Shown here: piece after piece, positions 21,447 to 32,312 of the stretch | Position numbering within the stretch: position 1 is the stretch's first letter | Layout: each line of letters begins with the position of its first letter | IMG/VR virus record: IMGVR_UViG_3300012971_000018 | Coordinates: 32,001-96,000 of that record | Direction: 5' to 3' (one strand) | DNA: 64,000 nt | Origin: a virus | The notes under the pieces: model-generated | Databases searched by the model: none | Told to the model about the DNA's origin: nothing | Seen by the model: only the letters and a program-made list of their open reading frames with translations | Translations under genes and position numbers: made by a program

Positions 21447-23336
21447 ATGATTACACTTATGGTGGGTTCGGTGGACGAGGCGCTCTGTCGGGGCGTCGCG
21501 CTCCTGCGCAAGGTCGGCGTAAAGCAGACGTCCCGGGCCGGCGATGTGTGGGTCGCACCCAGCCCGGTTACGACGATCTTCCACGATCCGGTAAAGCGGG
21601 TGCTGTTTAATGCGCATCGCGATGCCAATCCGTTCTTCCATCTGTTCGAAAGCCTGTGGCTGCTGGCCGGTCGCGACGATGCTACGTGGCTGGACCAGTT
21701 TGTCGGCGACTTCTCTTCGCGCTTCGCCGAGAGCGACGGAGTGCTCCATGGTTCCTACGGCCACCGGTGGCGGGAGGCGCTCGGCCTCGACCAGCTATTT
21801 GAGGTCGTGGAGAAGCTAAAGGCCAACCCCGACGATCGGCAATGCGTCCTCCAGATGTGGGACGCGCGGGACGACTGGCACGCGGATGGAGAGTATTCCG
21901 CGCACTCCGGATGCAACGATTTGCTAGGCAATTGGAAGGATCGGCCGTGTTTGGCGGGGGATACCGTTGTGTGGTCGCCCGAGGGGGACCTTCCTATTGC
22001 TGCGTTGGCGGAAAAGTTTGCGGCTGGTGTAAAACGTTGGCCCGTTTATTCCGTGAACGAGATGTCCAAGAAGTTGGAGATAAGGTGGGCTACAAATTGC
22101 TGGAGAAGCGGACGAAGGCGTACTGTAGTTCTAACTTTTGATGATGGTACGTCAATTCGAGCAACAGCGGACCACGTATTTTACGTATATCCTAAGAGGA
22201 TTGGTAGAAATGGGAAGGTAAGCGCCTTGGCGGCAAAACCGTGTCGGGTAGATAAGCTGCGGCCGGGGGATCGGGTATTAGCAACACAGCGGTTTTCCGG
22301 CAAGAAGGGCCACGAGGTAATTAAAAAGTGTTTGGCCGGGAATACGGCCTTTCGCAATATGCAGCAGACGCACAATGCGTATTATCGTCTTGTGTATGGC
22401 TCAATTCCAGAAGATTGTGAGCTTCATCATGTAGACGAAGTTAAGCGTAACAATAAGATCGCCAATTTGGAGCCACTCGATCCAGGAGAACATAGCCGAT
22501 TGCACAAAGTTGGGGATCGAAATCCGATGAGAAACATGACGGCTGCGCAGCACCGAGCGCGTGGTCGTAAGCAGTCGGTGTCGCTAAAGGCTGCTTGGGC
22601 TAAGCTTACTCCGATGCAGCGTGTTGCGAGATCGAAGGGTCTCCCCATAACCAACCACAGGATTGTTAGTATCGGTCCGGGACCGATCGAGGATGTATAC
22701 GATTTTACGGTTCCCGGTTTCCACACTGCAATAGTTGGTACTGGTGTGGTAACTCATAATTGCAACACCCATGCCTACCTTCGGGTTCGGGATGGGCTCT
22801 TGGACCTTACGGTGTGCTGCCGGTCGAACGATATTATCTGGGGCGCATACGGTGCCAATGCTGTGCAATTTTCCATGCTGCAAGAGTACCTCGCGGCGCG
22901 GATCGGCGTCGGCGTCGGCATCTATTACCAGATTAGCAACAACTACCACGCTTACGACAATGTTATCGACTGGAGCTTGGGCGAGAAGAACGCGCTAACG
23001 GATTGGGGGTGGTCGTACCGGGACTTCTGTGTCGAGCCGCTTGCGTTGGTTACCAATCCGGAGACGTTCGACCGGGAGCTGTCGTGCTTCTTTAAGCGGC
23101 CGGAGAGTTTTCTTCCGCTCGATCCCGTCCTTGCCCTGCGCACAGGTGGGCGGAACGAGTACGAGAACTTGTTCTTCCCTCGGGTAGCTGTCCCGCTTTA
23201 CCGCGCCATTCGGACGTGGAAGGACAAAGCGGTAGAGGACCGGAAGAAATTGGCAATACAGGAGTTGGATAGCGCACCAGCCGAGAACGACTGGAAGCTG
23301 GCCGCCCAGCAGTGGATGCAGAAGAGGATTAAATGA
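21447..23336 (+). CDS. thymidylate synthase-family enzyme, likely dUMP hydroxymethylase, intein-containing
   Basis: RDANPFFH, GSYGHRW, RSNDIIWGAYGAN, NYHAY; catalytic PC restored after splicing. Confidence 0.85.
   Translation: MITLMVGSVDEALCRGVALLRKVGVKQTSRAGDVWVAPSPVTTIFHDPVKRVLFNAHRDANPFFHLFESLWLLAGRDDATWLDQFVGDFSSRFAESDGVLHGSYGHRWREALGLDQLFEVVEKLKANPDDRQCVLQMWDARDDWHADGEYSAHSGCNDLLGNWKDRPCLAGDTVVWSPEGDLPIAALAEKFAAGVKRWPVYSVNEMSKKLEIRWATNCWRSGRRRTVVLTFDDGTSIRATADHVFYVYPKRIGRNGKVSALAAKPCRVDKLRPGDRVLATQRFSGKKGHEVIKKCLAGNTAFRNMQQTHNAYYRLVYGSIPEDCELHHVDEVKRNNKIANLEPLDPGEHSRLHKVGDRNPMRNMTAAQHRARGRKQSVSLKAAWAKLTPMQRVARSKGLPITNHRIVSIGPGPIEDVYDFTVPGFHTAIVGTGVVTHNCNTHAYLRVRDGLLDLTVCCRSNDIIWGAYGANAVQFSMLQEYLAARIGVGVGIYYQISNNYHAYDNVIDWSLGEKNALTDWGWSYRDFCVEPLALVTNPETFDRELSCFFKRPESFLPLDPVLALRTGGRNEYENLFFPRVAVPLYRAIRTWKDKAVEDRKKLAIQELDSAPAENDWKLAAQQWMQKRIK
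21948..22760 (+). mobile_element. intein with in-frame HNH domain
   Basis: CLAGDT...ATADH...LHHVDEVKRNN...VYDFTV...THN/C; 271 aa. Confidence 0.92.
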
Positions 23337-25370: not shown

Positions 25371-28300
25371 ATGGGGTTGTTGTATGCGGCCCAGGCTACA
25401 GTCGATGTTAGGGCGCGCCAGGAAGCCGTGCTCTACCAACGGATGGGCTGCAATATGTGCCCGCTTAACGATGTGCAGCCGGGGCGCGCCAATGCGACGG
25501 GTTCGGAGCATCCGCTAATATTATTCATAGGCGAAGCCCCCGGCAAGGAGGAGCAACGGACCGGCGAGCAGTTCGTCGGCGAGTCCGGGCAACTTCTGCG
25601 CCCGCGCATCCCGGAGGAATGGCTGCCGGATATTCGATGGACCAATACTGTTCATTGTCGTCCCTCGTATGGCAACGGCCACAATCGGACCCCCGAGCAC
25701 GACGAGATCGAGTGCTGCCGGCCGCGGTGGGTTGCCGACATCGAACGGACCAAGCCGAAGGCGATCTTTGCTTTCGGTAACGTCCCACTCCTGGCGATTA
25801 CCAACTTTACCGGCATAACGCTGTGGCGCGGGAGGCGGCTGCCGGTAAGGATCGGGTCGCACGTCTGCTGGCTCTATCCCATGCTCCATCCGGCCCACAT
25901 CCTGCGCCAGCGGCGGGACGAGGATCGTGGCAAGGATGCCAGGTTTGTTGGCTCCGAAGAGGAGCGGATGTTCGAGTTCGATCTCTACAAGGCATTGGAC
26001 GAGGTCGACGCCGGACTGCCACGGCCGATCGTCCACGACGAGAAGGAAGCCCGCCGCGGCGTCGAGATTGTAACCGAGGGCGGGCGGGAAGGGCTGCACC
26101 GGATCGAGGCCGCGCTTAGGTGGGCGTCCGCGCAGGACGATATCGGGTTCGACTACGAGACGCTGGGGCTACGGCCGTATGGTGCCAATGCCAAGATACT
26201 TACGGTCGCGGTCGCGACTGCGGACCGTGCGATTGCGTTTCCGATCCACCATCGCGAAGCCCGGTTCTCCGACAAGGAGCGCAAGACAATCGAGGATTTG
26301 GTCTGCAATTTCCTGTGCCAGTCCGGGCGTGTGTGGGTGCATAATCTGTCCTTCGAGATGGAATGGACGGCGGTTAAGTTCGGCCGCGACCTGCTGTACG
26401 CTACGCAGTGGCAGGACACGGCGACGCAGGCTTCCATTATTGACGAGCGGAAAGGCAATACCAAGCCGGGATGCTTTTCCCTCGAATGGCTCGTAATGCA
26501 GTACTTCGGCTTTAACCTTAAGAAGCTGTCCCCGCTAAACAAAGCTAATCTCGACCGCGAGCCGCTGCCAAAGGTGCTCGCCTATAATGCGATGGACGCC
26601 AAGTACCATCTGCGGCTTGGGCTGGAGCAGCAGGTAGTCATAAAGCAGCAGGGTCTGCAATCGGTCTACGAGCTGTCGTTGCGGCGGGTGCCGGCGGTCG
26701 TTACGTCGCAGGTCCTGGGCGTGCCGGTCGACCAGGACGAGAACGAGCGTCTGCACGCCAAGTACGCCAAGCGGGTCGCCAGCCTGGAGGCCGAAATCCA
26801 GCAGGTGCCGTTAATCCAGGGGTACAACAGCGACAACGCCGAGCCGTTTAACCCCGGCTCGAACCCGCAGTGCGTCGACGTTTTCTATCGGCGGCTAAAG
26901 CGCAAGGAGTGTCTGGTCGTCGACAAGTTCTCCAAGCGGGAGCGGCTGTCCTGCAATGAAGACGTACTAACCAAGATCGAGCACCCGCTGTCGAAGCTAA
27001 TCGTCCGCTGGCGCAAGGCGAAGCGGCAGGACTCGACCTACATCCAAGCATTGGCCCCGGGGACCGAGAATTCGGCGCTGTGGCCCGACGGTCTTCTGCA
27101 TAGTACGTTCAACACTTACTGGGTCGAGACCGGCCGGCTAAGCTGCTCGGCCCCTTGGACCGAGGTTAAGACCAGTCGTGGTGTGGTCCAGATCAAGGAC
27201 GTTATTGCAGGCGATTTGGTGTGGACCCACAGACAACGCTGGCGTTTAGTTACGCGGGCTTGGAGCAAAGGCTTCGAACAGATGTTCGACGTTGTATTGT
27301 CTAATGGGAAAGTTTTGACTTGCACCAAAAACCACCGTCTGCTATCCAAGGCCAGTGGCTGGATAACGGTTGGAGAGTTGTATGACGTATTCCAAGAGAT
27401 GGGTCGAGACGCCGGGGAATATAAAGCGCGTACTGGCGCTTTATCGCAGCAAGGAGTTGGTTCCAACAGAGCAGATAGCCAAGACGTTGGGCACATCGGT
27501 ACCAAACGTCTACGAGGCTATCAAACGGAACATGCCATTGGTCGAGAAGCAGGCTCTATCATCTGTTCGCTATTCGGCATCGAAGCTGGGCACAAAAAAT
27601 CCGATGCTGGGGCGAACTGGAGATCGGCATCCGAATTGGAAGGGGGAATGTTTGGATGGTCATGGTGGTTATTTGACCATAAAGGTTGGAAAGCGTCGTA
27701 TTTTTCTCCACCACCACTTGCTTATGCAGGCATTGGGTCTACCAGAAGTCCCACGCGGTTGGATGGTACACCATATCGATGGCGACCCGTTGAACAACGA
27801 CGTGGACAATTTGGCTTTGGTGACGGCTCGCGGACACAAAGCTATCCACTACAGACAGTTGGAGACCAAGACGTTGCGATTAAAGAAATCAAAGCTGGCG
27901 GAAGCTTTGAAGTATTTGATCTAACAGTAGAGGAGGACGCCAGCTATGAGACCTGTGGAGTATTTTCGCACAATAGCGAATTTCCAAACCTTCAGAATTT
28001 CCCGAAGCGCGACGGCGAGGCCGTCGAGGTCCGCCGGCAGGTCCAGGCCGCCCCTGGATATAGTATCATATCTCTGGACCTGGGCCAGATCGAAGCCCGT
28101 GTCGTCGCGATGTTTACCAAGGACCCGGTCTATGTAAAGCAATTGTGGGACAAGTTCGACATCCACAAGGATTGGGCCGAGCGGATCGCTTTCGCCTATC
28201 CGGATCGGATCGGCGGGTCGAAGAACCTAAAAGACCCGAAGGTAATGAAGACCTTTCGCAGTGACATAAAGAACCAGTGGACCTTCCCTCTGCTCTACGG

Positions 28301-28838
28301 TGCATCGTGCAAGTCGGTGGCTGGTTCTCTAAGCATTCCCGAGGACAAGCTAACGCCGCTGTACGACCAGTTCTGGAGCGAGTTCTCGACGGTAAAGAAA
28401 TGGCAGGAGGACCAGCTAAGGTTCTACCGTCGGCACGGCTATGTGGAATGCCTAACCGGCCGTCGGCGCCACGGTCCGCTGTCCCTTAACAAGGTCTACA
28501 ACACCCCGGTCCAGGGCACCGCAGCCGAGATAATCATGGACCGTATGTGTTACATGGTCGAGAGCGGCGATCCCGAGCTGCTGCCCGAGCTGCAAATCCA
28601 CGACGATCTAACCTTCCTGCGGGTGCGGGAGGAACGGGCCGAGGAAGTCGCGGGGAAGATATTGGACATTATGCTGGACCTGCGGCACTTCCCATGGGTG
28701 AACGTGCCGATATCCGTCGAGGTGGCAACCGGCTTTAACTGGATGCCTTGGGACAAGGACAACAACCCGGAAGGGCTAAGGGCGATGCCGGAAAGCTATT
28801 TCTCGAACGAGTGGCTAAAGGCGAGAGGAATAACATGA
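25371..28838 (+). CDS. DNA polymerase A with N-terminal family-4 UDG domain and 3'-5' exonuclease, intein-containing
   Basis: GEAPG/HCRP/HPA (UDG); DYET, HN, YNAMD (exo); TGRLS..PNLQN, DLGQIEAR, QIHDDL (PolA). Confidence 0.93.
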   Translation: MGLLYAAQATVDVRARQEAVLYQRMGCNMCPLNDVQPGRANATGSEHPLILFIGEAPGKEEQRTGEQFVGESGQLLRPRIPEEWLPDIRWTNTVHCRPSYGNGHNRTPEHDEIECCRPRWVADIERTKPKAIFAFGNVPLLAITNFTGITLWRGRRLPVRIGSHVCWLYPMLHPAHILRQRRDEDRGKDARFVGSEEERMFEFDLYKALDEVDAGLPRPIVHDEKEARRGVEIVTEGGREGLHRIEAALRWASAQDDIGFDYETLGLRPYGANAKILTVAVATADRAIAFPIHHREARFSDKERKTIEDLVCNFLCQSGRVWVHNLSFEMEWTAVKFGRDLLYATQWQDTATQASIIDERKGNTKPGCFSLEWLVMQYFGFNLKKLSPLNKANLDREPLPKVLAYNAMDAKYHLRLGLEQQVVIKQQGLQSVYELSLRRVPAVVTSQVLGVPVDQDENERLHAKYAKRVASLEAEIQQVPLIQGYNSDNAEPFNPGSNPQCVDVFYRRLKRKECLVVDKFSKRERLSCNEDVLTKIEHPLSKLIVRWRKAKRQDSTYIQALAPGTENSALWPDGLLHSTFNTYWVETGRLSCSAPWTEVKTSRGVVQIKDVIAGDLVWTHRQRWRLVTRAWSKGFEQMFDVVLSNGKVLTCTKNHRLLSKASGWITVGELYDVFQEMGRDAGEYKARTGALSQQGVGSNRADSQDVGHIGTKRLRGYQTEHAIGREAGSIICSLFGIEAGHKKSDAGANWRSASELEGGMFGWSWWLFDHKGWKASYFSPPPLAYAGIGSTRSPTRLDGTPYRWRPVEQRRGQFGFGDGSRTQSYPLQTVGDQDVAIKEIKAGGSFEVFDLTVEEDASYETCGVFSHNSEFPNLQNFPKRDGEAVEVRRQVQAAPGYSIISLDLGQIEARVVAMFTKDPVYVKQLWDKFDIHKDWAERIAFAYPDRIGGSKNLKDPKVMKTFRSDIKNQWTFPLLYGASCKSVAGSLSIPEDKLTPLYDQFWSEFSTVKKWQEDQLRFYRRHGYVECLTGRRRHGPLSLNKVYNTPVQGTAAEIIMDRMCYMVESGDPELLPELQIHDDLTFLRVREERAEEVAGKILDIMLDLRHFPWVNVPISVEVATGFNWMPWDKDNNPEGLRAMPESYFSNEWLKARGIT
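27144..27974 (+). mobile_element. intein in PolA
   Basis: CSAPWT...CTKNHRL...VFDLTVEE...SHN/S; 277 aa. Confidence 0.9.
27382..27924 (+). CDS. HNH endonuclease overprinted in the +1 frame inside the intein
   Basis: GGAG RBS at 27372; HPNWKG, VHHIDGDPLNNDVDNL...HKAIH. Confidence 0.85.
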   Translation: MTYSKRWVETPGNIKRVLALYRSKELVPTEQIAKTLGTSVPNVYEAIKRNMPLVEKQALSSVRYSASKLGTKNPMLGRTGDRHPNWKGECLDGHGGYLTIKVGKRRIFLHHHLLMQALGLPEVPRGWMVHHIDGDPLNNDVDNLALVTARGHKAIHYRQLETKTLRLKKSKLAEALKYLI

Positions 28839-29181: not shown

Positions 29182-29372
29182 ATGGAGCGCTATCGAGACG
29201 AGGGAGACAGATGCGCCGTATGCAAGTTCTTTGCCTCTACCGGCGGTGCCATGGGCGAGTGCCACAGGCGCTCGCCACGGAGCACGGCAAGTCGCCTGCG
29301 GCGGTATGGCCTAATGTGTCGGGGGACCATTGGTGCGGAGAGTTCGAGAAGGGGAGCGAGGAGGAGGAATGA
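29182..29372 (+). pseudogene. frameshifted small Cys-rich protein
   Basis: CAVCKF..GECHRRSP in one frame; WPNVSGDHWCGEF in another frame ending at an ATGA overlap. Confidence 0.55.
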
Positions 29373-30304
29373 GCCTGCTTATAAAGTATCGCCCTAGCTC
29401 CTGGGACGAAGTTCTCGGCCAGGACCGTGTGCTCGACTCGCTGGAGACGGTCGTTAGCAAGCGGCAGACCCATTCTTTCCTGCTGGTCGGTCCGTCGGGC
29501 TGTGGGAAGACGACGCTGGCCCGGCTTATCGCCAAGAACCTGGGATGTAGTGAGCTAAACCTTATCGAGACCGATCCGGCGACCCACCCGGGGGTCGAGG
29601 ATATCCGCGAGGTTATCTCGACGCTTAATACCCGGCCGCCCGGCGGCGGGACGCGGGTCGTTATCGTCGACGAGTGCCAGTTGTATTCGAAGAACGTCTG
29701 GACGGCGTTGCTAAAGATATCCGAGGACCCGCCGTCCTGGGTCTACTGGGTGTTCTGCACGACCGATGCGGGTAAGGTTCCGAGCGCAATGAAGACCCGG
29801 GCGGCGAGCTACGAGCTTCGCCCGGTAGCGCGCGCGGACCTCGAAGACATCGTTGTGTTTATCGCCCGATCCGAGAAGATGGACGTTCGCGCCGACGTTA
29901 TGGCGCTGTGCGCAGACGAAGCCGGCGGTTCGCCGCGACAGGCGATCTCCAATCTTGTGGTGTGCGCCGGTGCGAAATCGAGGGCGGAAGCGATCGAGTT
30001 GCTAAAGAACGGTTACGCGGAGGACGAGGCCGGCGCATTCGAGCTGGCGCAGGTGCTCTACAAGACCGGCGGAGCATCGTGGGAGGAGATGCGAAGCGTG
30101 CTGGCGAAGTTGCACGAGGCCGGCGCCAATCCCGAGGGCGTGCGGCAAGTCGTCCGGGCCTACGGCACCAAGATGCTGCTGGGCAATCCCAAAAGTCCGC
30201 AGTCGGTGTGTGCAGTCCTAAATGCCTTTTCTACTCCGTTCAATTCTGCCGACAAGGTAACGCCGGTCTTGCTGGCGTGTGCCAATTTGTGCTTTGGAGA
30301 TTAG
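29369..30304 (+). CDS. clamp loader (DnaX-like AAA+ ATPase)
   Basis: KYRPSSWDEVLGQ, GPSGCGKTT, IVDECQ, GSPRQA. Confidence 0.92.
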   Translation: MSLLIKYRPSSWDEVLGQDRVLDSLETVVSKRQTHSFLLVGPSGCGKTTLARLIAKNLGCSELNLIETDPATHPGVEDIREVISTLNTRPPGGGTRVVIVDECQLYSKNVWTALLKISEDPPSWVYWVFCTTDAGKVPSAMKTRAASYELRPVARADLEDIVVFIARSEKMDVRADVMALCADEAGGSPRQAISNLVVCAGAKSRAEAIELLKNGYAEDEAGAFELAQVLYKTGGASWEEMRSVLAKLHEAGANPEGVRQVVRAYGTKMLLGNPKSPQSVCAVLNAFSTPFNSADKVTPVLLACANLCFGD

Positions 30305-30305
30305 G

Positions 30306-30513
30306 GTAGGTTAGGTGGTGTAGGGCAAGGTGAGGTAGGGTTTGGTTCGGTAGGATGCGGTCTGGTACGGTTAGGTCGGGTCCGGTGCGGTCAGGTAAGG
30401 TAAGGCGCGGTGGGGTTAGGTCCGGTGGGGTAGGGTCGTGTCGGGTTGGGTTCGGTGAGGTCTGGCGAGGTCAGGTTGGGTTGGTTGGGGTATGGTTTGG
30501 TAAGGTAAGGGTA
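30306..30513 (+). repeat. (GGTNN)n pentamer tract, about 40 units
   Basis: ggtga ggtag ggttt ggttc ggtag ... Confidence 0.9.
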
Positions 30514-31204: not shown

Positions 31205-32312
31205 GCCGAAGCTAAGATACTATGGTGCCAACCGTACGGTCGAGGACGTAATGCGGACGCAATACGTCCCGTCCGGGAATTACGACGCCATTATCCAGGA
31301 GGGCTTCCCGGTATTCAAGCCGAAGGACGGCGAGAACGTTATCCGGCTTATGCAGGCGAGCTGGCCGGAGGAGGAAATTCCGAAATGGGGCACGGACTGG
31401 GCGATCCTCATTTCGGTCCACAACAATGTCGGCGACCGCGGCACCTTCCTGTGTCTCGATGCCATGTATGGCGAGCCTTGCCCGGTCTGCGAGGCGGCCA
31501 TGGAGGAGCCCGACAAGGACATTCGCTTCGAGCTGGAGGCCAACAAGCGCGCGCTGGCGTGGCTTATTAACCGGAAAGACCCGAGCGTCGGACCGCAGGC
31601 ATGGTCGATGCCGTTAAAGAAAGTCTGGAAGGTTATTAATGCCCGCTCGCGCGACCGCAAGACCGGTGCGTTGCTGCACATTGACGATCCGGAGGCAGGG
31701 TACGACGTGGTCTTTACCGGCGAGAATACCGGCAAGAAGACCGCCGACTACCAGGGGATCGAGATCGAGCGCGAGGCCACCATGCTAGGCCCCGACGACG
31801 CGACGCAGCAGAAGTGGATCGACTACATTGTGGAGAACCCGCTGCCGTCGATCCTAAACATCCCGGACCCCGAGTACATTCGTAAGCGCCTGTTCGGGAG
31901 GGTAAGCCGCGCCCGCCCGGCCGACGCTGTGGAGGAGGCGACCGGTGCGATGCCCGCGCGGCGGCGACCGGTAGCCCGGTCCGACGACGGTGTGCCGACC
32001 GAGCGGGACCCTACAGAGCCCGCCGACGCCGCGGCCGATACCCCGGCCACGGATGGCCGCGTACCGCGTCGTACGGCCCGCGCTGTGGCACCGGAGGAGC
32101 CTCCATTCGAACCCGACCCCTCCGCTGCTGCCGATCCGGGCGAGAGCGACCACGACCCCGAGACCGGAGAGGTAATGGACGGCACCGCGCCGCCGGTCCG
32201 TCCGGGGCGCCGTCCACCCCGGGACCCCGCGCCCGCGCCCGCGGAGACGCCGGCCCCGTCCCGCGCCACGCGGCAAGCCCTCGATCGCGTGCGGCCAAGT
32301 GCCCGCAGGTAG
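31194..32312 (+). CDS. gp32-like ssDNA-binding protein
   Basis: FKPKDGENVIR, H...C...CPVC, DPEAGYD, acidic/Pro tail. Confidence 0.75.
   Translation: MANKPKLRYYGANRTVEDVMRTQYVPSGNYDAIIQEGFPVFKPKDGENVIRLMQASWPEEEIPKWGTDWAILISVHNNVGDRGTFLCLDAMYGEPCPVCEAAMEEPDKDIRFELEANKRALAWLINRKDPSVGPQAWSMPLKKVWKVINARSRDRKTGALLHIDDPEAGYDVVFTGENTGKKTADYQGIEIEREATMLGPDDATQQKWIDYIVENPLPSILNIPDPEYIRKRLFGRVSRARPADAVEEATGAMPARRRPVARSDDGVPTERDPTEPADAAADTPATDGRVPRRTARAVAPEEPPFEPDPSAAADPGESDHDPETGEVMDGTAPPVRPGRRPPRDPAPAPAETPAPSRATRQALDRVRPSARR

Follow-up and report, generated by a model that had tools for sequence, protein, structure and literature searches.

A PolA intein with a separate HNH endonuclease gene in its +1 reading frame in an uncultured phage

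Homing endonucleases encoded within inteins of actinophages, in another frame or on the other strand, have been described by Gosselin, Arsenault & Gogarten (bioRxiv 10.1101/2025.01.02.630785, version of October 2025), including a same-strand 'frame 3' type with an EndoVII-like enzyme for which invasion by free-standing genes was proposed. Here we describe a locus of this general kind in a 64,000-nucleotide stretch of viral DNA (the window, positions 32,001 to 96,000 of IMG/VR record IMGVR_UViG_3300012971_000018), in which the gene for a family A DNA polymerase (PolA) is interrupted by an intein and an HNH endonuclease gene is nested in the +1 frame of that intein. The source record, of which the window is a part, is complete and has 111,906 bp with terminal repeats. 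The layout is real and selected, and it is very probably a class-1 intein that is spliced out of PolA and that homes by means of a separate, +1-frame gene for an endonuclease with a helix-turn-helix (HTH) and an HNH domain. An earlier note on this DNA had implied more novelty than the literature allows, as out-of-frame homing endonucleases in inteins were described in 2025 by Gosselin et al. and antisense cases have been known since 1998.

The locus shares with those of Gosselin et al. an intact splicing domain, a structureless in-frame middle and an endonuclease nested at the usual position in another same-strand frame, and in both cases the relatives of the endonuclease are free-standing and an origin by invasion of the intein is proposed. 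It differs in the enzyme, which is of the HNH_3 family with an N-terminal HTH domain and resembles I-PfoP3I rather than EndoVII, and in the extein, which is a family A polymerase interrupted at TGRLS/S (a slash marks the insertion point) rather than Pol III alpha, a minor capsid protein, terminase or thymidylate synthase. The hosts are uncultured phages with guanine-cytosine (GC) contents of 0.38-0.65 rather than actinophages. A clear, conserved Shine-Dalgarno sequence and ATG, together with its large size, set the PolA/HNH_3 family apart, and no report of such an overprinted family was found in the full-text literature searched.

Other related systems combine some of these properties. Arsenault et al. 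(2025, PMC11855218) described ShiLan-type insertions in DNA methylases of phages, which likewise place an HNH gene in an alternative frame with the insertion stop-free in the host frame. These have no splicing domain, the insert is thought to be retained in the protein and no ribosome-binding site was found, while in the window a complete intein surrounds the insert, which also has a Shine-Dalgarno sequence. Inteins with antisense LAGLIDADG genes have been known since 1998 (Gorbalenya 1998, as summarised by authors citing that work), and Dassa et al. (2009, PMC2677866) described fractured genes in which a free-standing endonuclease gene lies between split inteins. Both arrangements have a splicing element and an endonuclease as separate genes at one locus, whereas in the window the gene occupies the +1 frame of the same strand and its host gene is unsplit. 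A fractured gene with a split intein was rejected for the window since PolA is a single ORF of 1155 codons. The intron-borne endonucleases I-PfoP3I, phiL7 gp45 and those of phages PhAPEC7 and PS3 are homologous to the HNH protein of the window, of equal length, with a C-terminal HNH and the same PolA motif, but they ride on group I introns that are removed as RNA.

The PolA intein and the gene nested within it

The features of the locus are listed below in window coordinates.

25371 to 28838, + strand: PolA gene, interrupted by the intein; uracil-DNA-glycosylase (UDG) family 4-like, 3'-5' exonuclease and family A polymerase domains (list of open reading frames (ORFs), Pfam)
27144 to 27974, + strand: class-1 intein of 277 codons at TGRLS/SEFPNLQ, with Cys1, T61-x-x-H64, block F, H276-N277 and a +1 Ser
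27144 to 27407, + strand: N-terminal splicing domain, intein residues 1-88; AlphaFold2 pLDDT (predicted local distance difference test) 91-97, beta-rich, Foldseek matches to mini-inteins
27408 to 27845, + strand: intein-frame linker, residues 89-234; stop-free read-through of the HNH gene, pLDDT <50, no secondary structure predicted
27846 to 27974, + strand: C-terminal splicing domain, residues 235-277, with blocks F and G; pLDDT 84-95, VYDLTVEED...SHN conserved in 20 loci
27372 to 27375, + strand: Shine-Dalgarno sequence GGAG of the nested gene, 6 nt 5' of the ATG
27382 to 27924, + strand: nested gene for an HNH homing-type endonuclease of 180 residues, stop codon included; HNH_3, PHROG 7545, conserved start, dN/dS, AlphaFold2 pLDDT 87
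27382 to 27582, + strand: N-terminal HTH DNA-binding domain, residues 1-67; helices over residues 5-67 at pLDDT 93-98, VIA-align matches to HTH and winged HTH domains at Z of about 5, weak HTH_23
27766 to 27849, + strand: HNH catalytic core, residues 129-156, VHHIDG..NN..N..H..H; conserved residues, I-HmuI (1u3e) at Z 7.2 over residues 79-161

PolA is encoded by an ORF of 1155 amino acids that runs as one continuous reading frame across the intein, with Pfam matches to DNA_pol_A (2.9e-52), UDG (3.5e-22) and the exonuclease domain (3.8e-08). The N-terminus of PolA (window 25371-25950, + strand) is fused to the UDG family 4-like domain, and this fusion is common to about 100 metagenomic relatives. 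The insert is placed between TGRLS on the N side and SEFPNLQNFP on the C side and ends in ..VFSHN. Block B is T61-K-N-H64 (27324-27335) and block F reads ..FDLTVEED... Residues C1, T61, H64 and N277 were invariant in 20 intein sequences, H276 was present in at least 90% of them, and the +1 residue was Ser or Cys in all intein loci. The GC content was about 0.50 in the intein versus about 0.61 in the flanking PolA gene. Because the splicing blocks are intact and lie in an essential replication gene, the intein is likely to undergo protein splicing.

The middle of the intein had no Pfam domain, and matches were restricted to the N- and C-terminal splicing pieces. In an AlphaFold2 model built from the 20-sequence alignment the two ends are predicted to fold as a complete mini-intein, and they matched the Ssp DnaB (1mi8), Npu DnaE and Mtu RecA mini-inteins in Foldseek (E down to 4e-06, TM up to 0.78, the latter with 1mi8). 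The linker of about 146 codons between them (residues 89-234) is predicted to be disordered and is rich in Gly, Ser, Ala and Arg with a grand average of hydropathy (GRAVY) of -0.78.

The nested ORF begins with ATG at 27382 and ends with TAA at 27922-27924, in the +1 frame of PolA, where (27382-25371) mod 3 = 1. Its product matched HNH_3 (E 2.4e-11, 43.5 bits vs a cut-off of 24.8), PHROG 7545 at 6e-20 and, weakly, HTH_23, and contains the motifs HPNWKG, VHHIDGDPLNNDVDNL and HKAIH. Residues H130, H131, N139, N143 and H152 were invariant in 18 HNH sequences and H156 was conserved in at least 90%. In the model of the protein (pLDDT 87) the N-terminal part is a helical HTH domain and the C-terminal part a beta-beta-alpha core. 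The top solved match in both Foldseek (prob 0.99, E 0.13) and VIA-align was I-HmuI (1u3e), which was of moderate strength, with Z 7.2 and a root mean square deviation of 3.1 over 75 residues in VIA-align, 1.7 Z units over the next row. Foldseek gave no match to the model at E <=0.001, and a profile search of the HNH protein against PDB sequences gave none.

Signals for separate translation of the nested gene were conserved. Relatives of the HNH protein share the start M-(S or T)-(V or Y)-S-K-x-W, with ATG or GTG as the start codon, and a Shine-Dalgarno sequence 6-9 nt before it. The core of this sequence spans 4 nt or more in 16 of the 20 loci, and nine of the 20 have AGGAG at 7 nt. The AT-rich loci retain AAG-GAG at this position though GAG makes up 27% of their Glu codons, and several loci have an in-frame stop 0-5 codons upstream of the HNH start. 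These signals suggest that the gene would be translated. Both ends of the gene are doubly coding: HNH residues 1-9 share their DNA with the final helix of the N-terminal splicing domain, and the HNH C-terminal helix shares its DNA with block F, with the HNH stop codon usually inside the D-L-T-V codons.

A perfect 8-bp inverted repeat, TCAAAGCT..AGCTTTGA (27889-27910), lies directly before the HNH stop within the codons of the C-terminal splicing domain. It was flagged as terminator-like, and the count of such sites was not above that in shuffled sequences.

The same phage carries a second intein. The thymidylate synthase ORF at 21447 to 23336 (+ strand) has an intein with an in-frame HNH_3 domain (Thymidylat_synt 3.4e-15, HNH_3 2.2e-07, Intein_splicing 4.8e-07). 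This ThyA intein and those of two PolA relatives, P0057 and P0105, are canonical, come from the same phage or polymerase clade and use the same Pfam endonuclease family, HNH_3, the site of the latter two (GRL/SS) being adjacent to that of the window, but in all three the endonuclease is an in-frame domain. Only a core of about 45 residues is common to the in-frame and nested HNH proteins (E 2e-08 and 6e-04; ThyA 0.017). A simple frame-shifted copy of the HNH of ThyA, P0057 or P0105 was rejected as the source of the nested gene because these are not close relatives.

The architecture drawn in the earlier note was thus borne out at 27144-27974 and 27382-27924: the intein has all its hallmarks, its middle is without a recognisable in-frame domain, the +1 ORF is preceded by GGAG and encodes a clean HNH protein, and the thymidylate synthase intein of the window has its endonuclease in frame.

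Recurrence of the layout and selection in each frame

The HNH protein was searched against IMG/VR and JGI metagenomes, which gave 25 loci (about 20 distinct) with GC contents of 0.38-0.65 and full-length HNH relatives with 35-51% identity to that of the window. The architecture recurred throughout. Each of the 25 loci has a long PolA ORF with the HNH ORF in its +1 frame, a closed third frame and the intein at an identical site, GR[LFYM][SA]/C ... HN/[SC]xxPN. An intein profile matched 398 representative clusters at E <=1e-30, and in nearly all of the top 150 the match ran from end to end and covered about 278 residues of a polymerase-sized protein, so the intein family is probably large. Back-translated intein-frame patterns found no relatives in IMG/VR while the HNH-frame search did, as expected if the linker sequence is unconstrained. 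A blastn search of the intein against cultured phages gave no match, no cultured member of the family turned up among 50,697 phage records, and prokaryote genomes gave partial matches to the HNH core only, with no full-length HNH relative.

In the 540-nt overlap of the window there were no stops in the intein frame and ten in the third frame, in agreement with the claim that both coding frames are stop-free for about 540 nt. With the HNH protein held fixed, 8.8 stops were expected and an open intein frame arose in 0 of 5000 codon permutations. Across the loci the intein frame had no stop in any overlap and the third frame had 6-25; synonymous permutation (5000 per locus, HNH fixed) predicted 3-12 stops, with an open frame in at most 2% and usually <0.1% of permutations. 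The intein frame acquires a stop only where AAN, AGN or GAN follows an HNH codon with T in its third position, and a synonymous choice of HNH codon can always avoid this. The intron-borne relatives, where the insert is removed at the RNA level and the other frames are therefore full of stops, had 17 (I-PfoP3I) and 7 (phiL7 gp45) stops in the equivalent frame, and in the HNH genes of PhAPEC7 and PS3 this frame was open for only 7-9 codons around the gene middle.

In the central overlap the HNH frame had pairwise dN/dS values (Nei-Gojobori) of 0.07-0.5, against 1.0-2.4 in the intein frame. This contrast was uniform across 45 pairs, although the values are rough, given nearly saturated synonymous sites, overlapping frames and non-independent pairs. 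Amino-acid identity of the intein frame in the overlap was equal to that of the closed third frame. These comparisons support purifying selection on the HNH frame, with the intein frame in the overlap apparently constrained only to stay open. All computational tests suggested in the earlier note favoured its interpretation: the per-frame comparison separated the two frames, and the +1 ORF was found to be conserved, with start and Shine-Dalgarno sequence kept in about 20 independent assemblies.

Target site, distribution and alternative explanations

The closest named relatives of the HNH protein (32-41% identity) were I-PfoP3I of phage Pf-WMP3, phiL7 gp45 and the intron HNH genes of PhAPEC7, an E. 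coli phage, and PS3, a Providencia phage, the last two annotated in polymerase introns. The group I introns of these relatives interrupt the same PolA motif at SxxP/N or PNL/Q, 12-21 nt downstream of the intein site. I-PfoP3I, from a cyanophage, has been proven to nick intron-less DNA polymerase genes in a Mg-dependent manner and recognises positions -3 to +11 around its own intron site. According to Kong et al. (2012), the introns of SPO1, SP82 and Bastille likewise occupy the P/N site. The corresponding DNA of the window is as follows.

27984 to 27997, + strand: C-extein DNA CCNAACCTNCAGAA (codons P-N-L-Q-N), conserved, a candidate recognition sequence, aligned with -3 to +11 of the I-PfoP3I site

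The equivalent of 27984-27997 was the most conserved flanking DNA in the 20 intein loci and is uninterrupted by the intein, and it may be the target of the window enzyme. The TGRLSSxxPNLQNIP codons of PolA are an insertion hot spot, in which a span of about ten codons takes in two intron sites (P/N and L/Q) and at least three for inteins, and one HNH lineage occurs there on both vehicles, intein and group I intron.

Empty sites were found among the relatives of the window PolA. Ninety-nine of 107 relatives have 656-927 amino acids and are too short for the intein, and none of the seven examined among the eight longer ones (all but P0094) has this intein. The nearest relative (63% identical) runs unbroken through the site (..ETGRLSSEEPNLQNFPKRDGEAVEV..), and GRLS/(S or C)..PNLQ is unbroken in P0002, L079 and L085. 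None of six distinct IMG/VR relatives has an insert here; L079 and L085 retain the motif, which has diverged in the other four. The seven longer relatives bear other elements, namely UDG-domain inteins, GRL/SS inteins and a PN/CQ insert. The inteins of P0057 and P0105 are one codon upstream of the window's site, P0107 has a mini derivative of them, and the PN/CQ insert is that of P0066. The members of the clade with these other mobile inserts in the polymerase were P0057, P0105, P0107, P0066, P0003, P0053 and P0100. A PolA gene in IMG/VR 3300017963_000207 (locus L001, 1758-6536) has three intein-like inserts with canonical and overprinted designs in one gene: an overprinted-HNH intein, a canonical intein with an in-frame LAGLIDADG_3 domain (amino acids 862-939) and a third large insert.

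Across loci HNH identity was correlated with splicing-domain identity (rho 0.52) and not with extein identity (rho 0.12), and it was higher than extein identity (0.46 vs 0.28).

In the mechanism that we favour, ribosomes in the PolA frame would read through the HNH gene and give a PolA precursor with the disordered, hydrophilic linker of about 146 residues, which would be kept stop-free by synonymous HNH codon choice (no NNT before AAN, AGN or GAN). The intein halves would then fold together, splice and discard the linker to give active polymerase. Internal initiation at 27382, from the Shine-Dalgarno sequence and ATG, would yield an endonuclease of the I-PfoP3I and phiL7 gp45 type, which most likely nicks or cuts intein-less PolA in the TGRLSS..PNLQN region during co-infection, and recombinational repair would copy the intein and its gene into the empty site.

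Several observations weigh against this mechanism. Splicing, translation of the nested gene, nuclease activity of its product, the cleavage target and homing are all inferred, and the dN/dS estimates are rough for the reasons given above. The match to Pfam Intein_splicing, divided by the long linker, reached 26.6 bits against a gathering cut-off of 35.8. A sigma-70 promoter scan found no site in or before the intein, so expression would rest on polA mRNA and on internal initiation against the traffic of PolA-frame ribosomes. The window HNH was at most 51% identical to any other HNH found, and no near-identical inteins in divergent polymerases were present among the loci, the closest pair having 73% nucleotide identity, so recent transfer is not demonstrated. 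A C-extein target shared with I-PfoP3I would moreover stay intact in the occupied allele, which would leave self-protection unexplained.

Some of these points bear on another function of the HNH protein, which could be translated but no longer serve homing, or not homing alone, and be kept because it nicks the PolA genes of co-infecting relatives to the phage's competitive advantage (marker exclusion) or serves in replication or recombination, with the intein now inherited mainly vertically. Strong purifying selection without near-identical copies in divergent hosts speaks for such an enzyme, its candidate recognition sequence is uninterrupted by the intein, and I-HmuI-type nickases are reported in published work to cut occupied and empty alleles alike. 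The sporadic distribution, with the intein in none of 106 PolA relatives checked, the apparent decoupling of intein and HNH similarity from extein similarity and an intein GC content below that of the host gene argue for mobility, and we regard this function as improbable.

It is very unlikely that the +1 ORF is a decaying, unexpressed relic of a past invasion in which only the open PolA frame is selected. The lack of a promoter-like site would fit a relic, but in a relic stops would accumulate in the unprotected +1 frame, and the ORF is intact in all of about 20 loci with low HNH-frame dN/dS (0.07-0.5), invariant catalytic residues and a conserved start and Shine-Dalgarno sequence. The frame-specific dN/dS and the stop pattern were taken to rule out a dead ORF, and sequencing error likewise.

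Programmed frameshifting that enters the +1 frame near 27382 and returns from it near 27924, joining the intein and the HNH in one polypeptide with the endonuclease as an ordinary intein domain, has even less in its favour. Both frames are open and the product is formally possible, but two efficient shifts would be needed, the Met or Val start is conserved after a Shine-Dalgarno sequence and follows an in-frame stop by 0-5 codons in several loci, and selection for a stop-free linker would be pointless if ribosomes left the PolA frame.

Prior plausibility aside, and although the HNH relatives do reside in group I introns, it is scarcely credible that two compensating indels displaced an in-frame HNH or that the intein contains a group I intron with the HNH in it, given the identical frame relation in about 20 independent assemblies from different samples, a chance-open frame at P <=0.02 per locus and an RNA-spliced insert that would need no open frame. 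Recurrence of the layout and the stop statistics together exclude the compensating frameshift errors that the earlier note had named as a risk. The intron within the intein was rejected, with no Rfam match at E <=1 and a host frame that is open and selected to be so.

Outside PolA, a degenerate G/T-rich tandem array with periods of 5, 10, 15 and 30 and 66-75% matches occupies window positions 30358-30496, between a clamp-loader-like gene (29330-30304) and the next ORF.

Overprinting and proposed endonuclease gain at the polymerase hot spot

The class-1 intein with its separate +1-frame endonuclease gene adds to the systems described in 2025 clean evidence of selection and a connection with intron-borne relatives that share its polymerase hot spot. 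It is a large and notably clean natural example of overprinting in which one frame must fold and work while the other need only be stop-free. The nested gene will escape gene callers, and in domain scans such inteins will be labelled 'mini' or 'degenerate', so that active elements are undercounted when intein mobility is surveyed. The tie to characterised intron-borne relatives at the same motif means that the target can be guessed and tested.

The HNH relatives are free-standing-type, intron-borne homing endonucleases, which fits the suggestion of the earlier note that a free-standing HNH gene invaded a mini-intein, and the locus supports the acquisition of endonucleases by inteins through invasion by free-standing genes.

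A possible but doubtful extension is that a single HNH nickase lineage specialised on TGRLSS..PNLQNIP switches between a group I intron, where RNA splicing imposes no frame constraint, and a mini-intein, where protein splicing forces stop-free overprinting. Because the presumed recognition sequence lies outside the intein, 9 nt downstream of it, both occupied and empty alleles would be nicked, in the manner of I-HmuI. If this is true the enzyme would be a weapon in phage-phage competition as much as a homing engine, and the family would be a living intermediate for a 'splicing first, endonuclease later' origin of full-length inteins.

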